Assembly (NCBI GenBank): GCA_051002235.1
Contig: JBPCMN010000069.1
Span: 670-64,669 of the forward strand
Length of the DNA stretch: 64,000 nucleotides
Reading direction: 5' to 3'
DNA from: Acidimicrobiia bacterium
GTDB lineage: Bacteria; Actinomycetota; Acidimicrobiia; IMCC26256; JACDBD01
Part shown: positions 22,000 to 45,860 of the stretch, piece by piece
Layout: the number at the start of each line of letters is the position of its first letter
Numbering within the stretch: the first letter of the stretch is position 1
Notes under the pieces: generated by a model
The model's database searches: none
The model's input: only the letters and a program-made list of their open reading frames with translations
What the model was told of the DNA's origin: nothing
Translations under genes and position numbers: made by a program

Positions 22000-22017
22000 G
22001 CGGTAGGATCTCGGGCC

Positions 22018-22251: not shown

Positions 22252-22262
22252 CGCGCTTCCTC

Positions 22263-22290: not shown

Positions 22291-22299
22291 CTCTTCCTC

Positions 22300-22385
22300 G
22301 TCGGAGTGGCGGAATCGGCAGACGCGCTAGCTTGAGGGGCTAGTGCCCGCAAGGGCGTGGGGGTTCAAGTCCCCCCTCCGACACC
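22300..22385 (+). tRNA. tRNA-Leu (anticodon GAG), class II with long variable arm
   Basis: Acceptor GTCGGAG pairs with CTCCGAC. Anticodon stem CTAGC/GCTAG encloses loop TTGAGGG, giving anticodon GAG. Variable arm TGCCCGCAAGGGCGT, T-arm GGGGG-TTCAAGT-CCCCC, discriminator A, then CC (no encoded terminal A). Confidence 0.9.
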
Positions 22386-22420
22386 GATCGTGTACAACGG
22401 GGCAGCCCTCACCGGCACGA

Positions 22421-23389
22421 TCAGACGACAAGAGTGGGCGCATTGCTGAGAATGCTTTCCGCCTCGGACTCGAGCATCCGCACGATGTCGGCGGCGGGCA
22501 GTAGCTCGCCGATGAGCCCAGCGCTCTGGCCTCCGACTACGACGAGCTCTTCCAGCTTGCCCTCGGTCGCGGCGGTCGCGAGTTCGGTCAGCGCCGGGGT
22601 TGGATCAGCACTGATCTCGTCCCGGCGCTGCTGCCAGGCGTCGGTGAACGCTGTACGCAGGGCGCGCACCCGCGTGCCGTAGCCCAGTGCCCCCGGATTC
22701 GGCCTGAGGTCGTTGAAGAAGTCGAGCTGCACCCATGTTTCGGAGGCCGAAGTGAGGATCGCCCGCTTCCAGATGTGCCCGACGGGCGATTCCTCCGAGG
22801 CGAGGAAGCGGGTCCCGAGGTTGACGCCCGCTGCTCCGAGAACGAGCGCAGCGGCGACGCCACGACCGTCGGCGATTCCGCCGGCTGCGAGGACCGGCAC
22901 CGGGCGGACGGCATCAACGACCTGAGGGACCAGGGCGAGCGTGGCGACGCTCCCGCCGTAGCCTCCGGCCTCTGCTCCTTGGGCGACGATGATGTCGGCG
23001 CCGTGATCGACGGCAACCTCAGCCTGCTGGACCGTGGTGACCTGTTGCATGACCAGACTGCCCACATCGTGGGCCTTCTTCATGAGTTCGCCGGCGTCAT
23101 CCAGCGCGAACGACACAACCGCGGGAGCAGCTTCGAGCGTGAGTTCGAACCCGATGTAGTCGAGATCGGGTACAACGTGGTTCAGCGCGAACGGCTGCTC
23201 GGTCGAGTCGCTGAGTTCTGCGACGTCGCGGCGTAGCTGTTCCACCGGTCGCTGCCAGGCACCGAGGCTGCCGAGGCCACCGGCGTTGGACACGGCTGCG
23301 GCGAGGGCCGGTGAAGTGAAGATGCTCATCCCGGCCTGGACCACAGGCACGTCGATGCCCACCAGGTCACACAGTGCCGTGTGCAGCAT
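22421..23389 (-). CDS. nitronate monooxygenase / 2-nitropropane dioxygenase-like FMN oxidoreductase
   Basis: MLHTALCDLVGIDVPVVQAGMSIFTSPALAAAVSNAGGLGSLGA, AQGAEAGGYGG and LAAGGIADGRG are typical of the NMO/FabK-like TIM-barrel family. Confidence 0.85.
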   Translation of the reverse strand: MLHTALCDLVGIDVPVVQAGMSIFTSPALAAAVSNAGGLGSLGAWQRPVEQLRRDVAELSDSTEQPFALNHVVPDLDYIGFELTLEAAPAVVSFALDDAGELMKKAHDVGSLVMQQVTTVQQAEVAVDHGADIIVAQGAEAGGYGGSVATLALVPQVVDAVRPVPVLAAGGIADGRGVAAALVLGAAGVNLGTRFLASEESPVGHIWKRAILTSASETWVQLDFFNDLRPNPGALGYGTRVRALRTAFTDAWQQRRDEISADPTPALTELATAATEGKLEELVVVGGQSAGLIGELLPAADIVRMLESEAESILSNAPTLVV

Positions 23390-23582
23390 GGATCCCTCGC
23401 CAGAGTGGAGCTCGGCTCGCGCTCGGCGAATCTAGTCATGCTCGGAGACGTCGGCCGGCCGTTCCCGCGGCGGCCGCGTGCGCTTTCGGTCTCGTAGCTC
23501 GAGAGGCGAACGCGCAGACGGCGTGGACCTGACGTGATAGCTGAAGGTTTCCTCGACGAACCTTCGCACGAAAACGCGACCA

Positions 23583-23621
23583 CCCCACCCGTCACCGGTT
23601 CTCTGCCGATGACGGGTGGGG
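23583..23621 (-). terminator. 12-bp perfect stem hairpin downstream of the small secreted-protein gene (copy A)
   Basis: CCCCACCCGTCA - 15 nt - TGACGGGTGGGG. On the minus strand it is followed by CGCGTTTTCG. The same hairpin is conserved at 39969-40007 behind the paralogous gene. Confidence 0.45.
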
Positions 23622-23647
23622 CGAGCGAACTCCGACGTAGGGCTCCG

Positions 23648-24175
23648 TTAGAGCGGGCTGTCGAATCTGTGACAGCCGTAGTACTCGAAGGGGACACCGA
23701 TGTCAGGAAGGTACGTGTACTGCCGACTCGGCGGGTCGGTGGGACAAGGCTGACCCTGGAACAGGTCGGCTCTGATGTTGAACTCCGTTCCAAGGAACGG
23801 CGCGTCGGTAGATGCCGGGTCCGTCGTGTCGAAGACGAGGACGGTGAACGTCTCCGCGTCGCCGGAGGTGACGCTCGCGAGCACCCCGGGGCCTGCGCAG
23901 TGCACAGCGTGTACCACGTATAGGCAGTCCCAACCCACGGCGTCGAGGGCTGCGGGACTGACGCCATTCGCGGCCCAGGGGTTGACCGAAGGCGACTCGG
24001 TGCCGGCGGCTGCTCCCCGTCCGTTTACGGCCGAGGCAACTGTCGGTTTGGTCGGATTGGTCGCGTTGGCGCTCCTTGGGCTGACGGTCGTGAACAGCGC
24101 CAGGATCCCGAGAGCGAGCACGACGACCACGGTCAGCGCCGCGAGTCGGTGTCGATGCAGAGAGATGAGGTGCAT
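23648..24175 (-). CDS. small secreted/membrane-anchored protein with four conserved Cys (paralog A)
   Basis: ATG at 24175 (MHLISLHRHRLAALTVVVVLALGILALF) with an AAGGAAAGG RBS. The C-terminal ~110 aa are close to those of 40038-40532 (GWDCLYVVHAVHC...QGQPCPTDPP...FEYYGCH.FDSPL). Confidence 0.65.
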   Translation of the reverse strand: MHLISLHRHRLAALTVVVVLALGILALFTTVSPRSANATNPTKPTVASAVNGRGAAAGTESPSVNPWAANGVSPAALDAVGWDCLYVVHAVHCAGPGVLASVTSGDAETFTVLVFDTTDPASTDAPFLGTEFNIRADLFQGQPCPTDPPSRQYTYLPDIGVPFEYYGCHRFDSPL

Positions 24176-24444
24176 GGCGTACGCCTTTCCTTGGGTGGAA
24201 GTTCGGGTGAGTACCCGGACTTCGGTCTTCGTGTGACGCGATCGTGCGCTGAGGGGCTCTCGCGTCACTCCCGCGTGATCTGTTTCGACAAGCGAGGAAC
24301 GGGGATGTCCGATCCGGTTCCCGCGCATGCGCTGCCGACTCTGGAGCAGCGGATGGATGACGTTCGGGCGGTGCTCGACGCGGTCGGTTCGGAGCAGGTG
24401 AGCATCCCCCCTTTCTGTGGAGGCATCACCTATGAGGAGATGTC

Positions 24445-24732
24445 ATGACGGAGAGACGGAGGTTCGATCCGGAGTTCCGTGAGGGTGCGGTCCGGATCGT
24501 GAGGGAGACGGGCAAGCCGATCGCGGTGGTCGCTCGGGATCTCGGGATCGGGGCGGGCACGCTTGGGAACTGGGTCAAGAACGATCGCGTCGAACGCGGT
24601 GAGGCCGAGGGGCTGACGTTCGATGATCGTGGCGAGTTGACGCGGCTGCGCAAGCGGGTCGCGGAGCTCGAGATGGAGCGTGATGTCCTCAAACGATCGG
24701 TGGTCCTGTGGGTCAAGGAGGCGACGCGATGA
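24445..24732 (+). CDS. IS3-family transposase OrfA (HTH)
   Basis: [45 protein letters not shown]...[18 protein letters not shown] is a typical IS3 OrfA with a leucine-zipper end. Confidence 0.85.
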
Positions 24733-25622
24733 GCGTGGCGTCGCATATCGCCTCCCAGAGGACCGAGCACGGTGTTCCCCATGCGGTCGCGTGTCGGGCC
24801 CTGGGGGTGAGCGAGTCCTGGTTCTACAAGTGGCACCACCGGCCCCCGACGCCACGCCAACGACGACGGGTCGCGCTGGTCGAGGCGATCACCGAGGCGT
24901 TCGAGGCGTCGGGGCGGACCTATGGCTCCCCGCGGGTCCACGTCGAGCTGCGGGACCAGGGCTGGACGGTCAACGAGAAGACGGTGGCTCGGCTCATGGC
25001 CACCGAGGGCCTGGTCGCCCGAGCCAAGAAGCGCCGGCGCAGTCTGACCCGCCCCGACACGCGCGCAGTGCCGTTTGCGGACCTGGTCCGGCGGGACTTC
25101 TCGGCCCCGGCCCCCGATGTGACCTGGTGCGGGGATCTCAAGGTCATCGACACGCTCGAGGGACCGTTGTATCTGGGGACGGTCGAGGACCTGTTCTCCC
25201 GGCGGCTGTTGGGCTTCGCGATGAGCGAACATCCCGACGCGGCCCTGGCCCGTGACGCGATCCACATGGCCGTCGCGGTGCGCGGCGGGGACGTCGCCGG
25301 CGTGATCTTCCATTCGGATCGCGGGTCGACCTACACCGCGGACCTGTTCACCAGCGCGTGCACCAAGCTGAAGATCCGCCAGTCCATGGGCCGGGTCGGC
25401 TCCGCGCTCGACAACGCGGCGGCCGAGTCGTTCTTCTCGACGCTCGAACACGAGCGGCTGACCCGACGAACGTACGCGACGCGAGCCGAAGCCCGTCGAG
25501 ATGTCGCCCGCTGGATCGACGAGTTCTACAACCCGCGTCGACGACACAGCACCTGCGGCATGCTCTCGCCCGTCGCGTACGAGCACGCTCACGCAGCGCA
25601 ACTCGCACGGACCGCCGCGTGA
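24708..25622 (+). CDS. IS3-family transposase OrfB (DDE/rve integrase core)
   Basis: The HTH_21-like N-terminus ([10 protein letters not shown]) and rve core (WCGDLKVI...[10 protein letters not shown]...[15 protein letters not shown]) are both present. It lies in the -1 frame relative to OrfA, with an ATGA overlap at 24729-24732, so it is expressed either as a fusion by frameshift or from ATG 24729. Confidence 0.9.
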
Positions 25623-26936
25623 ACGTCAAACCGAGCGCGCGTGCGACGCTGTGTTGCGATCTCAGCCACGTTGACGAACGCGCTGGCACCAGACACCCGG
25701 CCGCGCGATCGTTCACCCAACCCAACACAACCCTCCACGATCAGGGGGGAAGCTCACAGGCGGCCGTGGTCGGGGTGTCCGAAGGAGGTCAGATGGCGGC
25801 TCTCTTCGCCGCCACGTACCCGGAGCGTACCCGGGCACTCGTCCTGTACGGCACACCTACGCCCGCATCAAAAGCGACCCGGACTACCCGCCGGGCGTGT
25901 CAGACGACGTTCTGGAGGCGCTCATCGGTGAGATCGAGGCCCACTGGGGCGAGGTAACGGAGCCCTTGGCCGCGTTTGCGATCAGCGCAGTAGGCGACCC
26001 ACGGTTCAAAGACTGGCTGGGTCGCTACGCACAGAACTCGGCCAGCCCGGGGACAGCGGTGACCCTGCTGCGCATGAACAACGACATCGACGTGCGCCCC
26101 GCACTGCCGGCCATCCCGGTCCCGGTCCTCGTACTGCACCGAGTCGACGATCCACTCATCAGGGCCGAGCACGGCCGGTACCTCGCCGAGCACATTCCGC
26201 GAGCGAAGTACGTCGAGCTCCCCGGCGACGACCATCTCGTCTTCGCGGGGGATGTGGACGGCCTCGTGGACGAGATCGAGCACTTCCTGACCGGGGCCCA
26301 CCGAGTAACCGAACCAGACCGGGTGCTGGCGACATTGCTCTTCACAGAGATCGTGGACCCCACCTCGCGAGCAGCTGAGCTGGGAGAGCAGCAATGGAGC
26401 GAATTACTCGATCGTCACCGCGAGATCATGCGGCGCGAGCTCGAGCGATTCCGCGGCCGGGAGGTGACAGCAACCGGTGACGTATGCCTCGCCGCATTCG
26501 ATGGTCCAGCCCGGGCCGTACAGTGTGGCCTGGCCGCAATCGAAGCGGTCCGGTGCCTCGGTATCGAGTTGCGCGTCGGCATCCACACCGGCGAATGCGA
26601 ACAGCGCGGCGACCAGCTCGGCGGCATCGCACTGCACGTCCCGGCCCGGATCGCTGCACTCGCGCAACCCGGCCAAGTGCTCGTCTCGCGCACCGTCACC
26701 GATCTCGTCGTCGGTTCCAGCCTCGAATTCACCGACCGCGGCGAGCACGAACTCAACGACGTACCGGGGAGCTGGCGGCTCTTCGCCGTCGAGCCGCCTG
26801 ATCGGGTGGGGTCGTAGGGTTCCTGTCGCCCCGCCCCGTGGCCGCAACGTCCTAACGCTCGGCCCGCGGTACGAGCCCTTCTGTTCAGGCCCCGATCGGA
26901 GCCGTGCGGATGAGCCGCGCCCGTGGGGTCAAGGCG

Positions 26937-26955
26937 CAAGTCCCCCCTCCGACAC
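26937..26955 (+). repeat. 19-bp copy of the tRNA-Leu 3' end (att-like core)
   Basis: CAAGTCCCCCCTCCGACAC is identical to 22366-22384. It is preceded by a ~120-bp block that is also conserved upstream of the copy at 43082-43100. Confidence 0.85.
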
Positions 26956-27410
26956 GCCTGGTCGCGAGCGAAACCGCTGGTCAGCGCCACTGTTACGAGC
27001 GCACGAACCGGCCTGAGGAGCCCCGCGATCACAGAATGATCACAGGGGAGGTGACTCGTGGGCTGGCGCCCGCTCAGCCAAAGGAGCGACGCCGATTCCG
27101 CCAGGAGTGGCCAATCACTCGCGCGGACATCTTCGCCGCCGACGAGGAGTGGATACCGCCATCCTTCCCGCAGGAGACGCCACTCCATCCGCCGATCGGC
27201 GCGTGGTGAGGCTTACGGAAGCGCCAGCGTTCCACGGATCAGGTGTGTGCTTTCGGGCGCCAACGCCTCACCGAGCGGCGGCGCCGGTGGCGGCGGTGAG
27301 TGACGACGACCGCGCATCCCAACGGGGGACCCCTATCGGAGCCCGAGCTGTCCGCGTATAGTCCCCAGAGGGGATATATGACCGATTTGGTCATTGTGGG
27401 GTAGGCGCGC

Positions 27411-28082
27411 ATGACGGTGGGGTGGTATCCCGACCCGACTGGTCGGCGGGAACAGCGGTATTGGGACGGGTCCGCCTGGACTGAACACGTGAGCGCAGGC
27501 GGGCAGCAATCGACGGACGAGATCACCGGGGATTACGCGGCTCCTCGCACACAGGCGACCCAGACGACCTCGACGCAGGCTCCCGTGGCAGTTGCACCCA
27601 GGAAACGTCCACCGACGAACCTGGGGCCGCTGCTCGTCACGCTGGGCGGTGGCGGGCTGATCGCCGGGGCGCTCATGCCGTGGGTGAGCGCGACCGCTCC
27701 GTTCATCGGGCAGGTGTCCTACGCCGGCACGAAGGGTGACGGCCAGCTGACCCTCGTCGGTGGTGCGATCATCGCAGTGCTCGGCCTGGTGCTGTTCAGC
27801 AACCCGGCGAACCGTGCCGCCGCGGTCTTCGCGCTGCTCGTCGCGATCGGCGCGGCGGTGGTGTGCTTCTACGACATCAGCAACGTCTCCGAAGCTGTCG
27901 ACGAAGCCAAGGACCTCGAAGTCGGGGTTGACGCGGAAGTCGGCTCGGGTTTGTACGTCTCGGTCGTCAGCGCCGTTGGCGCCGGCGTCGGAGCGATCAT
28001 TGCCGTGAACACGAAGACCTCAACGCCCCGCGCTGGACGCGAAGAAGCCCCCCGCCCGGAGGCGGGGGGCGTTGACACGTAA
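27411..28082 (+). CDS. DUF2510-like membrane protein
   Basis: N-terminal GWYPDPTGRREQRYWDGSAWTEHV (DUF2510 signature) followed by about four TM segments. A TATAGT -10-like hexamer lies about 50 nt upstream. Confidence 0.7.
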   Translation: MTVGWYPDPTGRREQRYWDGSAWTEHVSAGGQQSTDEITGDYAAPRTQATQTTSTQAPVAVAPRKRPPTNLGPLLVTLGGGGLIAGALMPWVSATAPFIGQVSYAGTKGDGQLTLVGGAIIAVLGLVLFSNPANRAAAVFALLVAIGAAVVCFYDISNVSEAVDEAKDLEVGVDAEVGSGLYVSVVSAVGAGVGAIIAVNTKTSTPRAGREEAPRPEAGGVDT

Positions 28083-28911
28083 GCAGCACGCGATGCTACG
28101 ACCCGCTCAGAGGCAGAGGCCAAGCAGCTGGGAGAGAGCGGCGTTCTGTCGGCTCTCCGTCGCAATCACGGTGGTCGTGGTCGCCGCCGCTCCCGCGTTC
28201 GCCAGCGTGGGGCGTCAGAGTGCTTTACCGGTGGTCATCAGCGGCGAGGAAGCTGCGCCGGCTGACCAATCATTGGTGGGGACAGCCGACACCGCAACCA
28301 TCCCGAAGGGCCGGAATCGGAAGCTCGTCGTTGTAGCGAACGGCCCCTCGCAAGACGGCAGTGTCCCAGTTGTCGTTCGCAACAACAAGAAGCGACGGGT
28401 CACCAACATCGAGGTACAGGGCACCGCGCGGGATGCCGCGGGGACCGTGATCGGGAGCGGCTCGTCCCAGGGCATCGAACCAGCTGCCCTGCCTCCCGGC
28501 GGCATCGGAATCGGTTACGTGTACTTCGGGTTCGACGATGAGCAGCGACTCGCGGACGCCACCTTCAAGTTCACGGTCAGTGCGGAGAAATCGAGTGACG
28601 CGGAGCGCGACTACTTCGTCTCCGTCGAGGTCACCGAGCACAACAAGGTTGAGAGCCTCGAGTTCGACTTTCTGCAGGGCGAGATCGTCGGCATCGTCCG
28701 GAACCCGCTCGACATAGAGGTGACGGGTCCAATCGGAGTCCTCGCGGCGTGTTTCGACGAGAGCGGTGCGCCAGTGCTGTCATCCAGGGGCTACACAGAG
28801 GTCGAAGACCTTCAGCCAGGCGCCGAATCACCGTTTTCGGTCGACTACTTCGAAACGCCGTGTCCCACCTACCTAGTTGGCGCGAGCGGCTTCAATGAGA
28901 GCGCGCTCTAG
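28072..28911 (+). CDS. hypothetical secreted protein
   Basis: 279-aa ORF with an N-terminal hydrophobic segment (LSVAITVVVVAAAPAFASV). No family recognised and the start is uncertain. Confidence 0.5.
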   Translation: MTRKQHAMLRPAQRQRPSSWERAAFCRLSVAITVVVVAAAPAFASVGRQSALPVVISGEEAAPADQSLVGTADTATIPKGRNRKLVVVANGPSQDGSVPVVVRNNKKRRVTNIEVQGTARDAAGTVIGSGSSQGIEPAALPPGGIGIGYVYFGFDDEQRLADATFKFTVSAEKSSDAERDYFVSVEVTEHNKVESLEFDFLQGEIVGIVRNPLDIEVTGPIGVLAACFDESGAPVLSSRGYTEVEDLQPGAESPFSVDYFETPCPTYLVGASGFNESAL

Positions 28912-29091
28912 GTTGATCCATGCAGATGATGCGACGGGAACCCAATCTCGAACGTCTCCACGCGGACCGCGCCATTCCACTCGATCATCTGAGCTGTCGG
29001 CCGCGACTTTGAGGTCAACGGCCTGCTGCGTGAACGCCTGAAATCAGTGCAACCTGTAGCGTCTACTACGGCATAGGGGCGGGGCGGCTCG

Positions 29092-29979
29092 ATGCCGTTT
29101 TCCGCGGTTTCGCGACGTCGTGCAGTGGGAGGCACCCAGCTCGTCGAGAACCGCCGCCAGATCCACGCCTGGGAGCGTGCTGCGCTCGCCGAGCTGCGAA
29201 CCGGCGATCCCGAGACGGCTTTTGACATCTATCGAGACCGCGGGCGCGTCTATCACGCCCAAGACTCCGAGCGGGTGCGGGAGCAACTCGTCGACGACTG
29301 GTGGACCGCCCGCGCCCGCAAGCCGGACAGCATCATGATCGCCAGCCGGCGCGCCGACGTCGACGACCTCAACCACCGCGCCCGCCACCGCCTCGCCACC
29401 GCCAAGCGACTCGGGCCGGACGAACTCATCGCCTGCGGGCGCGCCTTCGCCGTCGGCGACGAGGTCCTCGCTGCCCGCAACGACTACCAACTCGGCATCC
29501 TCAACGGCACCCGCGCCACCATCACCCGAATCGACCATGCCACGGAAACAATCCACGCCCGTCGCGGCTGTGCCAGCCACGAGATCGTCTTCCCACGCGG
29601 CTATGCCGGGGGCGGTTACCTCACCCATGCCTACGCGATGACGTTCCATAAGGCCCAGGGCATGACCGCGACGGAGAGTTTCGTCCTAGGTGACGACACC
29701 CTCGATCGCCAACGTGCCTACACCGGCCTCTCGAGAGGCACACATCGAAACGCGCTCTACATCGAGTCATCCGGCCAAACGAACGAGGAACAGCACGCGC
29801 CGTCAGCCGTGAACGATGCCGTCGCTCGCGCTCGCCTGGCCCTCGCGCGCACGCTCGCCAAGTCCATGGCGACCGACCAAGTCGAGCCCAGCCGCGGCCC
29901 CGCGACCGCGCCCACTCGTGGTGCGCCGTCGCGCCCACCTCCCGCCCCGCCGGACCTCGGACCCGACCTGGGCCTCTGA
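29092..29979 (+). pseudogene. 5'-truncated conjugative relaxase/helicase (MobF TraA/TrwC-like) fragment, C-terminal helicase part only
   Basis: WERAALAELRTGDPETAFDIYRDRGRVY, IMIASRRADVDDLNHRAR, GDEVLAARNDYQLGILNGTRATI, THAYAMTFHKAQGMTA and RQRAYTGLSRGTHRN match the C-terminal RecD-like region of MobF relaxases. No relaxase (HUH) or Walker A region lies upstream. Confidence 0.7.
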
Positions 29980-30211
29980 CGCGCGCCGGCTGAGGGCTTC
30001 GGCCGTTCTCGCATCCTGCGAGATACTCAGGCGTGAAGTGCGCAAAGTATCGCTCACCTCGCCGGCGGGGAACGCGCCATCGGCGAGAACCTCCCTACGT
30101 GGAACGGCTGCAGTAGGTGGGAGCGCAGCGACTTCTCGTACCCGCGCTGATGCCCGGTGCTTGGAGCAGCCGTGCGGGTTACTCTCGCAATCGGCGTTCG
30201 CTGGAACGGGG

Positions 30212-32893: not shown

Positions 32894-32908
32894 GTACGTC
32901 TGTACCTA
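32891..32908 (+). promoter_or_regulatory. 7-4-7 inverted repeat TAGGTAC-GTCT-GTACCTA between the LuxR gene and the first downstream gene
   Basis: Read directly from the sequence. It is relatively AT-rich for its context and lies 34 nt upstream of ATG 32942. Candidate operator or small hairpin; function is inferred only. Confidence 0.3.
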
Positions 32909-32941
32909 CCGCGGCGAGGGAGAAGCGGTGATGCTGGGTTC

Positions 32942-34762: not shown

Positions 34763-34782
34763 CGCACAAAGAGGAGCACCCC

Positions 34783-35484
34783 ATGTCACCCGAGTACTGG
34801 CGAAGCCCAGACGGTCAAAAGGTCGCGGCGGGTACCGTCGCCTTGCTGGCGGTGTTCGGCCTCGCCGCCTGCGGAGGCGGCGACGGCGCGGACAAAACCG
34901 CGAAGGAACAAGGCACCGCAACCGCGTCCAGGGGCGAGATCGACCCCGTGGTGCAGGTCGACGAAGTCGTCCGAGAGTTCGCCGGCGCCGTCCCGGGAAC
35001 GAACATCTACGCCGCCCTCGTGACCACTGAAGCGGACGACGCCGACGGCACCGGCGGTGAGGACGCCTTCGTCTACCTCTGCGACGGCGCCGCAATCGCC
35101 CAGCGGTTCTTCCAGGTCGAGGGGAACAAGACGCGGTTCGAAAACTTCAACGGGGGAACGGTGAGCGTCAAGGTCGCCGACGGCCAGGCGACAATCACCG
35201 GAAAGCTCAACGACGGCACCCAAGTCGACTTCACGATCCCCGAGGTCGACCCGGACGGACAGCCGGGCCTGTACTTCGCAGGCGACCAGGAGCTCGGTGC
35301 CGAGCCCGGCGACTACGCGGGTTGGATCGTGCTCGCTGACGGCTCCCAGCGGGGCAACGCCGTCATCGGCGGCACCGTGCAGCAGGCCGGCACGCTCGAC
35401 CCGGGCTCGCTCACGGTCACGGGGTCGCCGCTCGTGCAGGTCCGACCGAAGCTGCAGGGCTTTTTCATCATAACCTTCCCTTGA
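34783..35484 (+). CDS. hypothetical lipoprotein
   Basis: GAGGAG RBS and a lipobox in ...GTVALLAVFGLAACGGGDGA (L-A-A-C). The mature part has no recognised family. Confidence 0.65.
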   Translation: MSPEYWRSPDGQKVAAGTVALLAVFGLAACGGGDGADKTAKEQGTATASRGEIDPVVQVDEVVREFAGAVPGTNIYAALVTTEADDADGTGGEDAFVYLCDGAAIAQRFFQVEGNKTRFENFNGGTVSVKVADGQATITGKLNDGTQVDFTIPEVDPDGQPGLYFAGDQELGAEPGDYAGWIVLADGSQRGNAVIGGTVQQAGTLDPGSLTVTGSPLVQVRPKLQGFFIITFP

Positions 35485-35542
35485 TTGTACAGGCGGTGCG
35501 TCTCTCGACGTCGTTGACGAGCTCGTCACCCACCGGCTCGTC

Positions 35543-38023: not shown

Positions 38024-39408
38024 CGCCCGGGCCCGAGCGGGACGTAGAAGGTCGCCCGCCCCTCTACTTCCTCCACATTCCCAAGACGGCGGGGAACACC
38101 GTTTCCTGTTACCTCGCCGCTGGCTTCCGGGCCGACGAGGTCTGTCCCGCGACCGATTGGGCCGCCTTCCTTCGCCTGCCACCGCGGCAACTCGAGCATT
38201 ACCGACTGTTCCACGGCCACTTCGGTGCAATGCTCCCGGCGCTGCTGCCGAGCCGTCCGACCATCGTGAGCATGGTGCGCGATCCGGTCGATCGTGCCGT
38301 CTCTCACTGGCGATACATCCAACGCCACGCCGACCACCGCCTTCATCGAGACGTCATGCAGCAAGGTCCCAGACTCGCTGCGTACTTGCGCAGTCGCATC
38401 CCGAACGCACAGGTACGTCAGCTCGGCGTCGACCGGATCCCAGCCGAGCTCGTGCACCGTTTTCGCACGAGGCCCGAGTGCCATCCGCACGAAGCGAGCC
38501 TCGCGTTCGACCGGTGGACGTCGGGCCATGCAGACCTACTCGAGCGAGCCGTATCTCGCCTGGAAGAGTGCTTTGCCTTCGGGGTCGTGGAGCGACTCGA
38601 CCAGTCCCTCGCCCTCCTTGCGCATGCCCTCGGATGGGCACCTCCGTCGGGGGTCGCGTCGCTGAACGTGAGGCCTCCGAACGAGCCGACCTATGAGCCG
38701 ACTTCCGAGGAGATCGAAATCATTCACGAGCGGGACGCACTCGACGTGGCGCTCTACCACGAAGCCGTCCGGATGTTTGACGAGCGTTGGGAAGCTCTGC
38801 GCCCTGCCGACGCGAGACGGGCCTACGAAGGGCGCGTGGCTCGGCGCTCTCAGCCACTGGAGGCGCCGCTGACGGTCGACATGTCCGAGCGGATCGCGGG
38901 GACAGGCTGGCTTCCGCCAGAGGAAACGATCTCCGGATGGGCGCGCTGGATGGGGCCGGCTGGCCCGGCTTCCATCGACCTCCCCGTGGTGTTGCCGGCT
39001 GGTACTCGGGTCGAGGTCATGTGTACGGCCGCCATGAGCACGGAGCTCCTAGCGGAGTTGACACTGGAGCTCAACGGAACTCCGGTGCCACTGACGTGCG
39101 AGCCGTGCGGTCGAGGCGTGCGGTACGTCGGGATCGTTCCTGAGCAGTCTCAACACCGACCACCGTTCTCGCGCTTCGTCTTCCGCACCCCGAGGACGAT
39201 TACGTGGCGGCTCGAATCGGGGAGCAACGGGGACGCGCTCGACCTTGCCGTGGCGATCTCGTGGATGAGGCTCGTTCCACGCGAGTCGCTCGAGTGGCGG
39301 TCCCCGCCCCAGCGGGTCGCTTCCGGACGTGAGCACGGAACGCAAGTGCTTCCCGTGAGAGCCATGCGGGCCTCGAAGGTCGTGCGAGCTCGCCGCCAGC
39401 GGTCGTGA
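38020..39408 (+). CDS. PAPS-type sulfotransferase-family protein with a ~200-aa C-terminal domain of unknown function
   Basis: 5'-PSB-like motif LYFLHIPKTAGNTV and 3'-PB-like motif IVSMVRDPVDRAVSHWRY. ATGA overlap with the YcaO::TfuA stop suggests translational coupling. Confidence 0.75.
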   Translation: MTPGPERDVEGRPPLYFLHIPKTAGNTVSCYLAAGFRADEVCPATDWAAFLRLPPRQLEHYRLFHGHFGAMLPALLPSRPTIVSMVRDPVDRAVSHWRYIQRHADHRLHRDVMQQGPRLAAYLRSRIPNAQVRQLGVDRIPAELVHRFRTRPECHPHEASLAFDRWTSGHADLLERAVSRLEECFAFGVVERLDQSLALLAHALGWAPPSGVASLNVRPPNEPTYEPTSEEIEIIHERDALDVALYHEAVRMFDERWEALRPADARRAYEGRVARRSQPLEAPLTVDMSERIAGTGWLPPEETISGWARWMGPAGPASIDLPVVLPAGTRVEVMCTAAMSTELLAELTLELNGTPVPLTCEPCGRGVRYVGIVPEQSQHRPPFSRFVFRTPRTITWRLESGSNGDALDLAVAISWMRLVPRESLEWRSPPQRVASGREHGTQVLPVRAMRASKVVRARRQRS

Positions 39409-39809
39409 CAGCGGTCTGCCCGCCCCGTGTCCATCCCGGAGCTGTGTTGGACACCTGTCGACTACCAAGTTGAGGTTTCGCTTCGGGTCTCGCGGAACAG
39501 CAAGCTTCCCGACGTCGCTCCCGACGCGCGACCCAGCGACTGACTGACGCGGCGGGACGTGCCGTCCCGACGCCGCCCGGGCAACGGCGTCGCTGACCGA
39601 CTCGGGACGGAGCCATCCGACTGATGAGCCGACGAGCTGCGCCACGCCTCGCTAGGCGGTAACGGTCGTCGAGGGCCGAGGCGCCGCGTCTAACGCGCGT
39701 CTAACGAACGGGTCGCAAGGGCGTGGTACGGGCCGGCATCACGACGGCTGCGCACCGCACGTGACCTGCTAAAACGCGACGCGCTGACACGCGCTGAACG
39801 TGCCCGAGA

Positions 39810-39864
39810 TGCTTGAGGGGCTAGTGCCCGCAAGGGCGTGGGGGTTCAAGTCCCCCCTCCGACA
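39810..39864 (+). repeat. 55-bp exact copy of the 3' half of tRNA-Leu (anticodon loop to discriminator+C), att-like
   Basis: GCTTGAGGGGCTAGTGCCCGCAAGGGCGTGGGGGTTCAAGTCCCCCCTCCGACAC is identical to 22330-22384. No matching 5' half is present. Confidence 0.9.
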
Positions 39865-39968
39865 CGGAGGTCGAGCGTGGGGGCGGGGGCGACCGAGTCA
39901 TCGTTATCCCAACAGCCTGCAGCTGATCAGCTGACCTTCGCACGCACCTTCGCACGAAGCGTGACCAG

Positions 39969-40007
39969 CCCCACCCGTCACCGGTTCTCCGCCGATGACG
40001 GGTGGGG
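39969..40007 (-). terminator. 12-bp perfect stem hairpin downstream of the small secreted-protein gene (copy B)
   Basis: CCCCACCCGTCA - 15 nt - TGACGGGTGGGG, the same hairpin as at 23583-23621. Confidence 0.4.
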
Positions 40008-40037
40008 CGGGCCAACCCGAAGGAAGTAGGACTCCCG

Positions 40038-40532
40038 TTAGAGCGGGCTGTCGAACTTGTGACAGCCGTAGTACTCGAACGGGACACCGATGTCGGGGAG
40101 GTACGTGTACTCTCGCGTGGGCGGGTCGGTCGGACATGGCTGACCCTGGAAGAGGTCGGCTCTGATGTTGACCTCCTTCCCGAGGAACGGCGCGTCGCTG
40201 GATTCCGGGTCCATCGTGTCGAACACGAGGACGGTGAACTTCTCCGCCGTGCCGGACGTGATGGTCGCGAGCGCGCCGGGTTCTGCGCAGTGCACCGCGT
40301 GCACCACGTAGAGGCAGTCCCAGCCCTCGGCGTGGAGGGCGGCGGGACTCGACTGGGTGCGGACGTCTGCTTCCTGACGGTTCCCTCCGGCTTCAGTGGC
40401 CGGTTTCGCCGGATTGGTCGCATTGGCCCTCCACGGATTCAGGCTCGTGAAGAGCGCCGCGACCCCGAGAGCGATGACGACGACCACTGCCAGCGCTGCG
40501 AGTCGGTATCGACGCAAATTGGTGAGAAGCAT
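40038..40532 (-). CDS. small secreted/membrane-anchored protein with four conserved Cys (paralog B)
   Basis: ATG 40532 (MLLTNLRRYRLAALAVVVVIALGVAALF) after an AAGGAAGG RBS. The C-terminal domain is shared with 23648-24175. The long ORF-track extension to 41654 is antisense to the cyclase gene and was rejected. Confidence 0.7.
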   Translation of the reverse strand: MLLTNLRRYRLAALAVVVVIALGVAALFTSLNPWRANATNPAKPATEAGGNRQEADVRTQSSPAALHAEGWDCLYVVHAVHCAEPGALATITSGTAEKFTVLVFDTMDPESSDAPFLGKEVNIRADLFQGQPCPTDPPTREYTYLPDIGVPFEYYGCHKFDSPL

Positions 40533-40754
40533 GGGATTGCCCTTCCTTTGGTGGAAGTTTCGGGGTGAGGACCTCGAGACTTCGGTCTTCGTGTGCCGAG
40601 ATGGTGCGGGGAGGGCCTCTCGTGTCGGTCTCGGCCGACTCTCAGCTCGCTTTCGTCGGATCGGGACGTCCGCGCGCGCGTCGTAGGCTGGGTGTCGACG
40701 CGGCTCGGAGCCGCATTCACGGCTACCGGCGGGACGCGCGAAACGGGGGGCCGC

Positions 40755-42962
40755 GTGCAGTTTTCGGTGCTCGGCCCGCTCGAGGTCTTCGACGGGGGAT
40801 CTCCGGTCCCCCTGGGCAGTGCCAAGCAGCGTGTGTTGCTTGCGGCGTTGTTGGTGCAGGCCAACACGGTGGTGTCCGTCGATCGGCTCGCCGACATCCT
40901 CTGGGGTGACGAGCCGCCGCGGCACGCGGCCGCGACCCTGCAGAACTACGTGTCCCGCCTCCGCGCCGCGCTGGAGCCGGGTCGGGCCGGTGGACGCGCG
41001 GGCACGGTGTTGCTCACTCGGTCGCCGGGTTACCTGCTCCGCGTCCAGGAGGACGAGGTGGACGCCAGCCGCTTCGAGCAGCTCGTCGCCGAGGGACGCG
41101 TAGCTCTCCGCCAAGGGGAACGGGCCGGCGCAGCGAAGCGGTTGGACGACGCACTGGGGTTGTGGCGAGGTCCAGCGCTTGCGGAGTTTGCCGATGAGCC
41201 ATTCGCCCAGGCCGAAGCGGCTCGCCTCCATGAGCTGCGAGTGAGCGCGTTGGAGGACCGGATCGAGGCTGAGTTGGAGTTGGGTCGCCATACCGAAATG
41301 ATCGGTGACTTGGAAGCGGCGGCCCGCGACAACCCGTTGCGCGAACGACTGTGGGCCCGGTGGATGCTGGCGTTGTACCGCTGCGGCCGTCAGGCCGAGG
41401 CGCTGGGCGCCTACCAGGAGTTGCGCGCCCGTCTGGGCGAGGAGTTGGGGATCACGCCGAGCCCGGAGCTGGTGGCCCTGGAAGAGGCAATCGTGCTGCA
41501 AAAGCCCGAACTCGACTGGGCTCCACCCACACCGCAGCTGATGGGGGAGGAGGCTGCCCCCCGAGAGAGCGCGACGCACCGAGACCCACTCGGCCCCGCC
41601 CCGATGGTGGTGATGCCCAGGACTCGCTACGCCCAGGCCAGCGACGGTGTCCACATCGCCTACCAGGTCGTCGGCGACGGGCCGTTCGACCTGGTGGTGG
41701 TGGGCGGTCTCGTCTCACATTTGGAGTTCGCCTGGGAGGGGCCGGAGTACGCCCACTACCTCCGGCGACTCGCCGGCTTCGCTCGGCTGATCTGCTTCGA
41801 CAAACGAGGAACCGGCATGTCCGACCCGGTCTCCGTGCACGCGCTCCCGACCCTGGAGCAACGCATGGATGACTTCCGCGCGGTGCTGGACGCCGTCGGT
41901 TCCGAGCAAGCCGCCCTCTTCGGGGAGTCGGAAGGAGGCCAGATGGCGGGGCTGTTCGCGGCCAGCTACCCCGAGCGCACCCGGGCGCTCGTCACCTACG
42001 GGAGCTATGCGCGGCTCCGGAGCGCCCCCGACTACCCGCAGGGCCAGTCCGCCGACGACTTCGAGGCCTTCGTGACCGAAATGGAGGCCACCTGGGGTCA
42101 GGTAGCCGAGGGATCGGTGTGGGCAGTCAACGCGACGCGCGACCCGCGATTCAGGGACTGGCTTGGCCGCTGGGTGCGGAACGCGGCGAGCCCGGGGGCC
42201 GCCGGCACCCTGCTGCGCATGGACTACGACGTCGACGTTCGCCAGGTGCTGCCAACTATCCGGGTCCCGACCCTCGTGCTGCACCGCGTCGACGATCCGC
42301 TCGTTCCGGTAGCCCACGGCCGGTACTTCGCCGCGCACATCCCCGGGGCCAAGTTCGTCGAGCTTCCCGGCGATGACCGTCTCGTCTTCGCCGGGGATGT
42401 GGACCGCCTCGTCGACGAGATCGAGGAGTTCTTGACGGGTTCGCTCGTAATGCCCGAGCGCGACCGGGTGCTAGCGACGGTGTTGTTCACCGACGTCGTC
42501 GATTCCACCCGACGTGCGTCCGAGCTCGGTGACCAGCGTTGGCGTGAAGTGCTCGACCACTACGACGAGTGCCTGCGCCTCGAGTTCGGGCGGTTCCGCG
42601 GCCGGGAGGTGACCAAAGCCGGCGACGGATTCCTCGCCGCGTTCGATGGTCCTGCCCGAGCTGTGCAATGCGCCCTAGCGGCGACCGACGCTGGCCGACG
42701 CCTCGGTCTCGAGGTACGCGCCGGAGTCCATACCGGCGAATGCGAACAGCGCGGCGACGACCTCGGCGGTACCGCCGTTCACATCGGGGCCCAGATCGCG
42801 GCACTCGCGCAACCCGGTCAAGTGCTCGTCTCGCGCACCGTGACCGACCTCGTCGCGGGCTCTGGCCTCGAGTTCACCGGCTGGGGTGACCACGAGCTCG
42901 AGGGCGTACCGGGGATGTGGCAGCTCTTCGCCGTCAAGCCGCCTGATCCGGTGGGGTCGTAG
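40755..42962 (+). CDS. SARP (OmpR-type wHTH + BTAD) :: alpha/beta-hydrolase :: class III adenylate/guanylate cyclase tri-domain protein
   Basis: The N-terminal SARP region reads VQFSVLGPLEVFDGGSPVPLGSAKQRVLLAALL...LWRGPALAEFADEPFAQAEAARLHELR...YRCGRQAEALGAYQELRARL. The hydrolase region has FDLVVVGGLVSHLE, FDKRGTGMSDP, GESEGGQMA and LVLHRVDDPLVP. The cyclase region reads RVLATVLFTDVVDSTRRASELGD...KAGDGFLAAFDGPARAVQCA...VRAGVHTGECE...GTAVHIGAQIAALA. GTG start at 40755. Confidence 0.85.
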   Translation: MQFSVLGPLEVFDGGSPVPLGSAKQRVLLAALLVQANTVVSVDRLADILWGDEPPRHAAATLQNYVSRLRAALEPGRAGGRAGTVLLTRSPGYLLRVQEDEVDASRFEQLVAEGRVALRQGERAGAAKRLDDALGLWRGPALAEFADEPFAQAEAARLHELRVSALEDRIEAELELGRHTEMIGDLEAAARDNPLRERLWARWMLALYRCGRQAEALGAYQELRARLGEELGITPSPELVALEEAIVLQKPELDWAPPTPQLMGEEAAPRESATHRDPLGPAPMVVMPRTRYAQASDGVHIAYQVVGDGPFDLVVVGGLVSHLEFAWEGPEYAHYLRRLAGFARLICFDKRGTGMSDPVSVHALPTLEQRMDDFRAVLDAVGSEQAALFGESEGGQMAGLFAASYPERTRALVTYGSYARLRSAPDYPQGQSADDFEAFVTEMEATWGQVAEGSVWAVNATRDPRFRDWLGRWVRNAASPGAAGTLLRMDYDVDVRQVLPTIRVPTLVLHRVDDPLVPVAHGRYFAAHIPGAKFVELPGDDRLVFAGDVDRLVDEIEEFLTGSLVMPERDRVLATVLFTDVVDSTRRASELGDQRWREVLDHYDECLRLEFGRFRGREVTKAGDGFLAAFDGPARAVQCALAATDAGRRLGLEVRAGVHTGECEQRGDDLGGTAVHIGAQIAALAQPGQVLVSRTVTDLVAGSGLEFTGWGDHELEGVPGMWQLFAVKPPDPVGS

Positions 42963-43081
42963 GTTCCGCTCGCCCGGCCCGTGGCCGCATCGTCCTAACG
43001 TTCGGCGTCGACGGTGCGAGCCCTTCTGTGCAGGCCCCGATCGGCGCCGTCCGGGACAACCGCGCCCGTGGGGTCGAGCCG

Positions 43082-43100
43082 CAAGTCCCCCCTCCGACAC
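43082..43100 (+). repeat. 19-bp copy of the tRNA-Leu 3' end (att-like core)
   Basis: CAAGTCCCCCCTCCGACAC is identical to 22366-22384, in the same context as 26937-26955 (about 120 nt after the cyclase stop). Confidence 0.85.
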
Positions 43101-43225
43101 GTGGGGTTTCAAGTCGGGTTGTGGACAACCCACTTCTCCGCACGCGCTCGTCGCTCGAAGGGTCGCGGGAGTCGCGCCGCGTGGCGTTGTTGGCCCGAGC
43201 GAACCAGATTCCGTCGAGGCGCCGT

Positions 43226-43734
43226 CTATCGCGCGCTCCCGTCCGCCTCAGTCATTGAAGGGGGAGGCACGGAGCGGAGGTAGCTGGTCAGAGCGTCTGC
43301 CTGGTTCGCCAGATTCCGTGCGAACAAGCGGGCTGTCAGGGCGACGAGTGGACGGGTGATGATGCTGACTTCGCGAAACGTGATCGACCACGTGTAGTTC
43401 GTTCCACCATCCGCGCGTGGCTCGAAGCGGTGCTGAGCAATCATCTGAGCCGGCCACGTCACAATGCTCCGAAACTCCGCGAGCAGGGGTGGCTCCCATC
43501 GCACGGTCTCGCTGGTGCCCCGAATAGGCAGCACGCCGAGACGTCCACGGATCGAGAAGCGCGTGCCCACCCCGATCGGTTCTGCATCGGGCGCCACTCC
43601 CGCACGCCCGGATCGATCAGTGGCGCCGTGTCGGGCGACATCACCGCCGCGAAGACCACGTCTGGGGGGCTCGGGATCACCGTGGTCCTGTCGACGACCG
43701 TCGTCCGTTCCACCATCGGCGGAGATCCTTCCAC
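43226..43734 (-). pseudogene. SRPBCC (polyketide cyclase/dehydrase-like) protein, frameshifted
   Basis: The N-terminal part MVERTTVVDRTTVIPSPPDVVFAAVMSPDTAPLIDPGVREWRP is in one frame. The rest, DAEPIGVGTRFSIRGRLGVLPIRGTSETVRWEPP...YTWSITFRE..., is in another. The junction at about 43588-43593 is consistent with a 1-nt deletion. Confidence 0.7.
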
Positions 43735-43828
43735 GTCGAGTCGTGGTCGCGGCTCGCCGTAGCTGAGCGTTGGTCATGCTGCGAGATGGATCACCCGCGT
43801 CAGCTGAACCGCGTGGCGCTGAACGTCA

Positions 43829-43849
43829 AAGTCCCCCCTCCGACACCGA
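43829..43849 (+). repeat. 21-bp copy of the tRNA-Leu 3' end plus 3 nt of its downstream flank
   Basis: AAGTCCCCCCTCCGACACCGA is identical to 22367-22387. Confidence 0.8.
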
Positions 43850-43896
43850 GCGGGTCAGCCGTGCGGCCCGCCGCTCGAGGATCGCCACGAGCCCGC

Positions 43897-45204
43897 CTAG
43901 CTCGGTGACGGCGGCCTCGACTCGGGGCGGGGGCGCCGCGCGCGGGTGGCACCGACTTCCTCAGCGACGTTGCGGTAGAGCACCAGCAATAAGACGTCGT
44001 ACGTGACCTTCACCACGCCGGCGATCACGAGTGGCCAGCCGAAGGTCGTCCGCGCGAGCAGTGCCCCCGCGAGGAGAGGCGTTGCCGCCGCGGCGAGGCT
44101 GCGCGGGACGTTGGTGACACTCGCGGCGGCGGCCCGTTCCTCGGGTGGGACGACTGCCATCACGAACGACTGGCGCGCGGGCACGTCCATCTGCGAGAGG
44201 AACGCGCGTCCGAGGAGCAGCGCGATCGCGACGCCACCGTTCGGCGCGAACGCAGCGAGGAGTAGCAGCACGTTGGCAGGGATGTGGGTGAACGCCATCG
44301 TCCGCACGAGCCCCAGCCGGCGCGCGAGCCGGGGCGCGAGCAGTTGGGAGAACCCGGACAGGACGCCGGCAGCGAAGAACACCACTGCGGTGGTTCCCGC
44401 CGACAGATCGAAGCGCAGATGCAGCCACAACACGAGCAGGGAGGTCACGACGAACCCGCCGCCCGCGGCGTCGAGGCTGAACAGGCCAGTGAGCTCGAGC
44501 ACCGTCCGTCGCGACGTGTCGAGCACGCGACGCCTCTCGCGGCGCGAGACCGCCGGCAGCACCTCGTGATGGCGCGTCAGGCGGCGGTACACAAGGAAGA
44601 TCGCGACGCCTGCGAGCGCGTACAGCAGGAAGCTCGCCTGCTGAGTCTCGGTCACGTCCCAGTCCTGCGCGTGCGCTAGGCCCTCGGGGATGCTGGACGC
44701 GAGCGCGCCCACTGCGCCGGCGAAGATCGCGCCGAGGTTATAGATCGCGAACGTCCACGGCCGGCGCGGCGCGTCGACGCGGGATGACACCAGCGCCTGC
44801 TCGGTGGGGAGGAACACGCTCACGTCGCCCGACGACGGATTGAGGGTACCGACCACCGCGATGACGAGGAGCGGCCAGAACGCGGTGATGCTCGCGAACC
44901 CGAGGCCGGTCGCGACCATGATCCCGGTCGCCGCGAGCAGCAGTCCCCGCAGGGTGAACCGGTGGCTGGTGAGGCCGAACGTCAGGGTCAGCACCGCCGA
45001 GCCGAGCAGGGTGCCGGTGACGATCGCGCCGACCTCGACCGGGGAGAAGCCGAGCCCGGTGAGGTACTGCGCGAGAAGCACGCTCACGAACCCGTCGGCG
45101 AAGCCCCGGATCGCGCGACCGGTGACCACGCGCCGGACGTCGGGCGGCATGCCGTGCAACCTACGGCGGTCGACAGTTCGGAGCGGGCGGATTCTCGGCT
45201 GCAT
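43897..45204 (-). CDS. MFS transporter
   Basis: 435 aa with about 12 TM segments and the MFS loop motif region GRAIRGFADGFVSVLL. Confidence 0.8.
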   Translation of the reverse strand: MQPRIRPLRTVDRRRLHGMPPDVRRVVTGRAIRGFADGFVSVLLAQYLTGLGFSPVEVGAIVTGTLLGSAVLTLTFGLTSHRFTLRGLLLAATGIMVATGLGFASITAFWPLLVIAVVGTLNPSSGDVSVFLPTEQALVSSRVDAPRRPWTFAIYNLGAIFAGAVGALASSIPEGLAHAQDWDVTETQQASFLLYALAGVAIFLVYRRLTRHHEVLPAVSRRERRRVLDTSRRTVLELTGLFSLDAAGGGFVVTSLLVLWLHLRFDLSAGTTAVVFFAAGVLSGFSQLLAPRLARRLGLVRTMAFTHIPANVLLLLAAFAPNGGVAIALLLGRAFLSQMDVPARQSFVMAVVPPEERAAAASVTNVPRSLAAAATPLLAGALLARTTFGWPLVIAGVVKVTYDVLLLVLYRNVAEEVGATRARRPRPESRPPSPS

Positions 45205-45363
45205 GCCCGCGTACGACCTCGGTCATTCGCCTTCGGTCACGGGCGTGTGCCGAGCGCCCGGCGATGGAACAGCCTGCGGAGGGGCAGCCCGAGGGTGTGA
45301 TCTCAGTGGTTGTCAGGCCAGAGACAGGGGTCGGATTGGCCGCATCCGTGGGGTCAAGCCGCG

Positions 45364-45383
45364 AGTCGCCCCTCCGACACCGA
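45364..45383 (+). repeat. degenerate copy (19/20) of the tRNA-Leu 3' end
   Basis: AGTCGCCCCTCCGACACCGA versus tRNA AGTCCCCCCTCCGACACCGA. It is preceded by CCGTGGGGTCAAGCCGCG, matching the blocks before 26937 and 43082. Confidence 0.7.
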
Positions 45384-45767
45384 CTGCTGCGAAGCCCGAA
45401 GAACGCTCGGCTCAACCGTCGGGAAGCGTCGGCTCCCGGTCATCGCACCCTCGGCGCACTCAACGTCGGGCTGTGACGAGCCAGGCGCCATTCTCGTTCA
45501 TCACGACACCCTCTGGGCGTGCATACGGCTCGAGCGCCTTTCGCGCCGCGTCAATTGCGGCGGCTGCCTTGTCGGCGGGCGCGGCTGCGAGGAGGTCCCG
45601 AACGAGTGGCAGTGAGCGTGTGAAGAAGGTCTCGACGTCGTCGAGATCGTCACCGATGCGCATTGGCCGGGTCAGCTCTTCCTGCGGGCGAGCTGACCGC
45701 GGTTCTAGCGTCGCCCGCTTGGATCAGCCCCATGTCAAGCGACGCCAAAACGGGAGTCAGTTCCCCT

Positions 45768-45822
45768 ACCAGGGATGCGGCAGCTCTTCGCCGCCAATCT
45801 GCCTGATCGGGTGGGGTCGTAG
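45768..45822 (+). pseudogene. remnant of a third cyclase-gene 3' end
   Basis: ...PLPGMRQLFAANLPDRVGS* with DNA gcagctcttcgccgccaatctgcctgatcgggtggggtcgtag matches the last ~55 nt of 26817- and 42962-terminated genes (ctcttcgccgtc.agccgcctgatc.ggtggggtcgtag). Confidence 0.6.
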
Positions 45823-45860
45823 GGTCCCGAGCTAGGCGCGCACCACCGCAGTGCAGCAGC

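Follow-up and report, generated by a model that had tools for sequence, protein, structure and literature searches.

The 64,000-nucleotide stretch of DNA analysed here (the window) comes from an uncultured Acidimicrobiia bacterium of soil and has a GC content of about 70%. It contains a single tRNA gene, tRNA-Leu(GAG), identified on the + strand at 22300-22385 by ARAGORN and Rfam (52.9 bits with the Rfam tRNA model), and the DNA behind this gene carries accessory genes interspersed with partial copies of the tRNA 3' end (Table 1). An original prediction, made from the letters alone, had described this array and suggested that GC and codon usage be profiled. GC content at third codon positions (GC3) proved to be 0.75-0.87 from 22.4 to about 51 kb and about 0.93 in the flanking core genes, and the lower GC3 therefore marks the region as foreign.

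Two classes of tRNA 3'-end copies

Five copies of the tRNA 3' end lie downstream of the gene, all on the + strand, as had been claimed. Exact-match scans located two 19-bp exact copies (26937-26955 and 43082-43100), a 21-bp exact copy that includes the three tRNA-flank bases CGA (43829-43849), a 19/20 copy (45364-45383) and a 55-bp copy of tRNA bases 22330-22384. The last was rightly called exact, but its coordinates had been given as 39810-39864, 1 nt too low; it lies at 39811-39865. None of the five is expected by chance: with up to two mismatches, the core 19-mer matches six times in the window and not once in 100 dinucleotide-preserving shuffles. In contrast, a 13-bp scrap that had been counted with them (true position 39714-39726) is at chance level, and the same tRNA segment matches 4156-4169 (14 bp) and 16720-16731 (12 bp) in housekeeping DNA. 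An independent assembly, Logan SRR33880241 contig L111, is 100% identical to window 41655-45899 and thereby corroborates the order in which three of the copies lie.

The copies fall in two classes. Repeat search and blastn revealed that those at 26937-26955 and 43082-43100 and the one ending at 45380 share about 50 nt more on the upstream side, which are not in the tRNA. The copies ending at 26955, 43100, 43846 and 45380 each form the terminus of a longer conserved sequence, a unit of ~70 nt; in unit A the final 19 nt are identical to the tRNA 3' end, starting at the T-loop. Alignment of 20 copies gave the consensus G.TCA.GC.GCCA.CGGCACCGT.CGG...AGCCGCACCCGTGGGGTCAAGCCGCAAGTCCCCCCTCCGACAC, in which the last ~11 nt, CCTCCGACAC, are invariant and identical to the tRNA 3' acceptor strand. 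A pattern for the unit extension matches 3 times in the window (0 expected) and in 13 metagenome contigs of the Joint Genome Institute (JGI), with 0 matches in IMG/VR. Counted in this way and with a hidden Markov model (nhmmer), the family has three strong copies and one weak but full-length copy in the window, none of them beyond 45.4 kb, and 19 further copies in the 13 contigs. The view that all copies are plain displaced tRNA ends, in which the unit had been overlooked, is thus wrong for four of the five; the fifth is the anticodon-loop block of 55 bp.

Two interpretations of the unit itself were rejected. A variable-arm-like hairpin in it does not exceed what shuffled sequence gives (mean z -0.5), and no structural claim is made; RNAalifold on the 20 units gave only a 6-pair invariant T-arm-like stem with no covariation, and Rfam at gathering thresholds returned no structured RNA in the window besides the tRNA. 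Nor is the unit a 3' untranslated region of the SARP-cyclase gene that precedes it in modules A and B (see below), since five homologous loci (77-83% amino acid identity), in several of which a small gene also occupies the upstream place of orfX, have no unit or core downstream.

A second, unrelated unit type of ~108 nt occurs on the - strand of contigs L110 (10662-10739), where it directly adjoins an integrase, and L094 (3022-3130). It is 84% conserved between the two. Because it also terminates in the tRNA acceptor strand (...GGGTCGCGTGTACTTAGGGTGTGTGTCGCACCTCCGACAC), several unit families seem to share an identical last ~10 nt.

The 55-bp block belongs to a wider group. Blocks of 52-55 nt that start within 3 nt of the same tRNA position were found in three IMG/VR contigs and in L110, each with a different upstream arm, and the anticodon-loop start is seen at five independent junctions, two of them beside recombinase genes in viral contigs. 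In one (L108) a tyrosine integrase begins 133 nt after the block, and in the other (L107) a large serine recombinase adjoins it. A 26-nt T-arm/acceptor pattern of the tRNA gave three matches in IMG/VR, all of the anticodon-loop type. Anticodon-loop, T-loop and junction crossover subsites with displaced fragments have been described for tRNA islands (PMC4383910), and our two classes of copies correspond to the anticodon-loop and the T-loop/junction subsites of that description.

The 55-bp copy in the window is a classic displaced tRNA fragment, and it closes the 12.9-kb remnant of an element. This element is probably conjugative because a TraA fragment lies within it; the truncated relaxase reported earlier was indeed recovered, as the C-terminal part of a TraA-type relaxase. 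The 55-bp pair had further been proposed to bracket a single, latest acquisition. That proposal fails, since a unit at 26955 divides the interval, and the tRNA-proximal 4.6-kb cassette is therefore probably younger than the 12.9-kb YcaO-bearing element.

Module duplication, strain comparisons and recombinases

The self-comparison suggested with the prediction (repeat search, blastn) also revealed a diverged duplication that had been missed. Positions 23556-26956 and 39942-43101 (modules A and B) are copies of one 3.2-kb module made up of a hairpin, a small minus-strand open reading frame (ORF; orfX) and a SARP-cyclase gene, with 77-78% nucleotide and 67-69% amino acid identity (blastn/tblastn) and an internal deletion of 1.16 kb in A relative to B. 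The repeats might accordingly have been made within one genome by segmental duplication or homologous recombination, without site-specific integration, and the paralogy of A and B over 3.2 kb, together with a third fragment of the module, is what such a process would leave. However, the two modules are 77-78% identical and their cores 100% identical, the homology ends precisely with the final base of the 19-bp copies, breakpoints in other strains fall on the same tRNA base with unrelated DNA beyond it, and integrases flank the same sequences elsewhere. We regard duplication as a very improbable origin of the array.

The exact SecG sequence was found on eight other contigs, which are 98.4-99.8% identical to window 12017-22384. 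All eight lose homology at 22384/22385, right after ...CTCCGACAC, and the flanks behind the tRNA are of four unrelated kinds, the window's own and three further ones, one of them with a tyrosine integrase. The proposal of an integration hot spot at the tRNA 3' end with a tandem array behind it could have been refuted by relatives that do not vary at the tRNA; in these same-species contigs they do, and the proposal is borne out.

Sister-strain contig L106, which begins inside the tRNA, is 98.1% identical to window 39847-43100 and, where homology picks up again, 98.8% identical to 46312-49270. It carries four unit-separated cassettes with ordinary accessory genes, and no recombinase gene is encoded in any of the four. 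The 5' neighbour of cassette B is a unit in L106 and the 55-bp block in the window, different DNA follows on the 3' side in each, and the homology begins and stops at the core on both sides. A cassette with an ODP gene (100% identical over 429 nt) lies directly after the tRNA in L004 and in third position in L106. The MFS gene recurs in L099 with 92% identity, with the same variant core (GTCGCCCC) and with other neighbours. Since cassettes that are 98-100% identical have moved in strains whose core DNA is >98% identical, the rearrangements appear to be recent, and the array seems to be re-assorted at the cores among close relatives. The locus had been called immobilised and eroding. Erosion is evident; in contrast, because the same cassettes occur at different array positions and beside different neighbours in near-identical strains, one of which has an integrase beside the tRNA, the locus appears to be dynamic and not immobilised. 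Since the variant T-stem bases of the core stay with their cassette (MFS, window versus L099), the crossover of unit-type cassettes probably lies in the invariant CCTCCGACAC.

Two comparisons were dropped. L001 had been considered as the empty site of a 1.2-kb insertion in L105, but only 124 nt after the core are common to both, at 91.6% identity. GTDB relatives were unusable for an empty-site test, as their best TpiA identity is 71% and their tRNA-Leu(GAG) lies 6.5-8.5 kb from tpiA.

No match to PF00589, PF00239 or PF07508 was obtained in called genes or long ORFs between 22.4 and 46 kb, and tblastn with the recombinases of L003, L110, L108 and L107 found nothing credible as an integrase remnant in the window. 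The region is therefore without a tyrosine or serine recombinase, as stated before, and the claim that no integrase is present stands, although it passes over the DDE transposase of an IS3-family insertion sequence (IS) at 24445-25622, which is irrelevant to recombination at the tRNA. In sister-strain contig L003, the first gene after the tRNA, 91 nt away, encodes a tyrosine integrase (PF00589, E=1.8e-16); the contig includes just its C-terminal 85 aa. A frameshifted but otherwise complete homologue stands beside the second unit type in L110, where the integrase-bearing island closes 9.5 kb away in a 55-bp block of the anticodon type, and in L099 a truncated homologue is located after a unit.

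The C-terminus of the L003 integrase has 24 database homologues (P0121-P0144), every one of them short (71-136 aa). Many lie at contig ends, but at least one (P0127, 126 aa) is found inside a contig of 5.9 kb. C-terminal integrase stumps beside tRNA-type cores may be a recurrent product of such arrays.

These results bear on a passive reading, in which the modules are stumps of integrase-bearing islands or prophages that decayed independently and are now immobile, and the differences among strains reflect old, separate histories. Erosion is clear in the relaxase fragment, the truncated and IS-interrupted cyclase gene and a 61-nt gene scrap, the window is without a recombinase, and truncated integrase fragments lie beside cores elsewhere (L099, and many matches of 88-136 aa). 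Against this, cassettes of 98-100% identity have other positions and neighbours in strains >98% identical in core DNA. Moreover, random decay would not be expected to yield modules of 0.75-3.2 kb with intact genes, all started by a core and all with a full ~70-nt unit. Passive decay as the whole explanation is therefore unlikely.

Proposed tandem accretion and its relation to known systems

We favour, with moderate confidence, tandem accretion at a tRNA hot spot, in which cassettes that have no integrase are moved by recombinases acting in trans. The 3' end of tRNA-Leu(GAG) would be the landing pad of site-specific recombination, and the 24 kb behind it the product of accretion of two classes of modules. 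The first class would have a single member, an element whose crossover was in the anticodon loop. The exact 55-bp displaced fragment would mark its far end, and its integrase would since have been lost. To the second would belong at least four cassettes of small size (0.75-4.6 kb), which carry 1-3 genes but no recombinase and have the unit on the tRNA-distal side. Each new module would be added next to the tRNA, with older ones displaced outward, and recombination between any two cores would delete or re-order modules. The enzymes may come from integrase-bearing elements at the same site in sister strains or elsewhere in the genome; their action in trans is suggested by the integrase at the tRNA of a sister strain and by the recent re-assortment. 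The probable order of events would be that the anticodon-loop element integrated beside cassette B, displacing the 55-bp fragment, and that the unit-type cassette at 22386-26955 later entered at the tRNA and left its unit-core against the left end of the element. Older cassettes (SRPBCC, MFS and the scrap of a third cyclase module) would sit farther out, and IS insertion, deletions and integrase loss would have followed.

Several observations weigh against tandem accretion as formulated here. No recombinase acting on the unit was identified, and in the 13 contigs with units no intact integrase adjoins a unit; the L003/L110 integrase family goes with the 55-bp anticodon-type block and not demonstrably with the unit. 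The left ends of 12 cassettes have no common motif (CTTGACC/CTGACC, tried as one, is present in a few cassettes only), which is unexpected for two-armed attP elements or for cis-mobilizable elements (CIMEs). The right end of the array at 45381-46311 is without a terminal core that would mark the original chromosomal flank. Furthermore, the strain comparisons rest on metagenome contigs.

The classical picture of tRNA islands is also at odds with motif-free left ends combined with a conserved right-end unit, and with small cassettes of intact genes. These features recall integrons. The array might be the visible portion of a gene-capture system of Acidimicrobiia in which the unit, with its likeness to a tRNA 3' half, is an attC-like cassette site and the tRNA 3' end an attI-like primary site, served by a dedicated recombinase encoded elsewhere, which we consider rather improbable. 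It is similarly doubtful that the unit alone, without a second arm, is enough for excision and for insertion at the tRNA or at any unit, and we give little credence to a repeated conversion of chromosomal gene pairs (orfX and SARP-cyclase) into mobile cassettes. The right end of the 12 cassettes is conserved and their left ends are not; they are small, with 1-3 intact accessory genes; recombinase-free arrays of 4-5 cassettes occur in two strains (window and L106); and a cassette keeps its own unit across different arrays. The orfX/SARP-cyclase pair is unit-free at five related loci and has been captured here as a unit-terminated cassette at least four times. On the other side, no candidate for the recombinase came to light, and it is secG, not an integrase gene, that lies upstream of the tRNA; genes have mixed orientation inside cassettes; the hairpin of the unit is insignificant and therefore gives no support for a folded-strand substrate; and all this is drawn from only about 20 units on short contigs.

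Compared with integron arrays in general, the likenesses are the one-directional small cassettes, each with an end site of a family type, their unconserved starts and their re-ordering between strains. The differences are that no IntI-type recombinase lies at the tRNA, which takes the place of the primary site (the upstream genes are tpiA and secG, and the window is without a recombinase), that the unit is not an attC (no R''-L''/L'-R' imperfect palindrome) but is directional and ends in the tRNA acceptor strand, and that some cassettes are multi-gene with mixed gene orientation.

The tandem accretion that we favour has closer relatives. In the tandem islands of Islander (Williams 2002; Hudson et al. 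2015, PMC4383910), as here, an intact tRNA is followed by 3' fragments in the same orientation at island ends, and crossovers occur at two sublocations, the anticodon loop (here the 55-bp block) and the T-loop/acceptor junction (19 nt or less). The window has the intact tRNA with a displaced fragment on the same strand, and the sister contigs have presence/absence polymorphism with its breakpoint at the att core. However, every member of an Islander tandem must have an integrase, and arrays with at least three members account for only 4 of 3919 islands (PMC4383910); the array here has five or six members, no integrase in any of them, and four 'fragments' that are the ends of a ~70-nt unit.

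Site-specific accretion with CIMEs is known from ICESt1 and ICESt3, integrative and conjugative elements (ICEs) of Streptococcus thermophilus (reviewed in PMC5704250). In both cases, att-bounded modules without an integrase are stacked by the target gene and may be mobilised by the integrase of a related element; here each cassette lies between cores and has no recombinase gene. CIMEs retain the attL and attR arms of the parental ICE, whereas here the tRNA-distal end alone is conserved and the inner left ends have no conserved arm. The cassettes here are also much smaller, their cargo is unrelated, their mobilisation is putative, and no parental element carrying the unit was found.

In the tycheposon islands of Prochlorococcus (bioRxiv 10.1101/2020.12.28.424599), partial tRNAs occur and older elements are pushed into the island. 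Such a flexible, tRNA-anchored island, with scattered partial tRNAs, fragmented integrases and strain-level heterogeneity, resembles the present locus. The phylum differs, and the tycheposon hallmarks (a tyrosine or large serine recombinase with a replication module of primase, helicase or polymerase) are absent from the array in the window; the text consulted on those islands describes no conserved ~70-nt unit at cassette ends. The accretion account matches both the known accretion/CIME behaviour (PMC5704250) and the tycheposon-island picture (bioRxiv 10.1101/2020.12.28.424599).

What is new here is an array of small, intact, recombinase-free cassettes that end in a ~70-nt unit and are re-ordered between strains >98% identical. 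If they move in trans, one enzyme could drive a cassette economy comparable to that of integrons but anchored on a tRNA, and flexible genes in metagenome-assembled genomes would be sought through the unit and not through an integrase. It also follows that 'partial tRNA' matches can be the ends of a repeat family.

Islands anchored on tRNA genes are a main source of strain-level variation in gene content, and the usual model places an integrase in each element.

Cargo of the modules and neighbouring loci

Table 1. Features of the tRNA-Leu(GAG) locus in the window and of the cassettes in contig L106
Feature	Position	Strand	Evidence and remarks
Intact tRNA-Leu(GAG)	22300-22385	+	ARAGORN, Rfam; directly 3' of gap-pgk-tpiA-secG (Pfam); anchor of array
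Cassette 1, 4.57 kb	22386-26955	+	nitronate monooxygenase and module A (Pfam; blastn/tblastn vs module B)
Nitronate monooxygenase	22421-23389	-	Pfam
Module A hairpin	23583-23630		in cassette 1
orfX-A	23648-24175	-	in module A
SARP/alpha-beta-hydrolase/cyclase gene remnants	24257-24397 and 25757-26817		module A
IS3-family insertion sequence	24398-25757	+	within module-A cyclase gene
IS3 orfA and orfB	24445-24732 and 24729-25622	+	HTH_Tnp_1 and rve domains (Pfam)
Truncated alpha/beta-hydrolase-cyclase	25897-26817	+	Pfam/NCBIfam
Unit A	26884-26955	+	nhmmer E=1.7e-17; alignment; exact 19-mer
Remnant of anticodon-loop-type integrative (conjugative) element, 12.9 kb	26956-39810	+	Pfam, NCBIfam
DUF2510 protein	27411-28082	+	Pfam
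FxLYD-domain protein	28171-28911	+	Pfam
TraA relaxase fragment (C-terminal third)	29125-29979	+	NCBIfam TraA_Ti positions 503-722 of 751
AAA-LuxR regulator	30161-32893	+	Pfam
606-aa repeat protein	32942-34762	+	no assigned family
213-aa protein	34843-35484	+	no assigned family
YcaO-TfuA fusion, 812 aa	35585-38023	+	NCBIfam YcaO/TfuA thioamidation models
Sulfotransferase-like protein	38020-39408	+	Pfam
55-bp exact tRNA copy, anticodon loop to discriminator base	39811-39865	+	exact-match scan; read as displaced fragment (attR) of 12.9-kb element
Cassette B, 3.2 kb	39866-43100	+	Pfam; 98.1% identical to L106rc 7297-10504
Module B hairpin	39969-40016		in cassette B
orfX-B	40038-40487	-	in cassette B
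Intact SARP/alpha-beta-hydrolase/class-3 cyclase gene	40593-42962	+	Pfam; database gene call (P0001) 735 aa
Unit B	43031-43100	+	nhmmer
746-nt cassette	43101-43846	+	ends in diverged unit
SRPBCC (Polyketide_cyc2) gene	43226-43777	-	Pfam
Diverged unit	43774-43846	+	nhmmer, full-length, E=1.4e-3
1.5-kb cassette	43847-45380	+	ends in unit C
MFS transporter gene	43897-45204	-	Pfam
Unit C	45316-45380	+	nhmmer E=3e-15
Eroded array tail	45381-46311	+	repeat search (families D6/D9), blastn, Pfam
Third cyclase-gene 3'-end fragment, 61 nt	45767-45827		in eroded tail
Glyoxalase gene	45861-46259	-	Pfam
L106 cassette 1			two-component system and PepSY
L106 cassette 2			SnoaL and truncated hydrolase-cyclase
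L106 cassette 3			ODP, methyltransferase, PadR
L106 cassette 4			cassette B

The small orfX, which looks secreted, stands in divergent orientation to the SARP/alpha-beta-hydrolase/class-3 cyclase gene. In several related Acidimicrobiia contigs (L092, L093, L113 and L114) minus-strand small genes have the same upstream position, which is a likeness of placement; the cyclase family has thousands of database members. Just downstream of orfX lies the hairpin, with a perfect 12-bp stem (CCCCACCCGTCA...TGACGGGTGGGG). It is 94% conserved between the modules, while the DNA around it is only 77-78% identical, and its probable role is that of a terminator or protein-binding site under selection. The alignment of module A to module B is broken at 41907/41908 by the IS3 element, whose terminal inverted repeats are GTGAGC(A/T)TCCCCCC and which is bordered by a duplicated CAGG. 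Look-ups of the exact glyoxalase and SRPBCC proteins gave no new arrangements.

The YcaO-TfuA cluster of the window sits within what we read as the conjugative-element remnant, and the genes at 30161-39408 form a possible locus for a thioamide-type ribosomally synthesized and post-translationally modified peptide (RiPP). The 606-aa protein in it has five tandem repeats of ~16 aa (GTLDGTVELP...), with DNA repeats of period 48 at 33269-33518.

Just outside the array lies a reverse transcriptase (48498-49796) that gives a full-length match to PADLOC model RT_UG26 (E=2.6e-82); the window yielded no group II intron RNA. Its neighbours at 47547-50372 are a truncated fragment of a Y-family polymerase (IMS_C, 47547-48083) on one side and a gene of 185 aa on the other, next to an AlkZ glycosylase, and this locus may be of a defence type.

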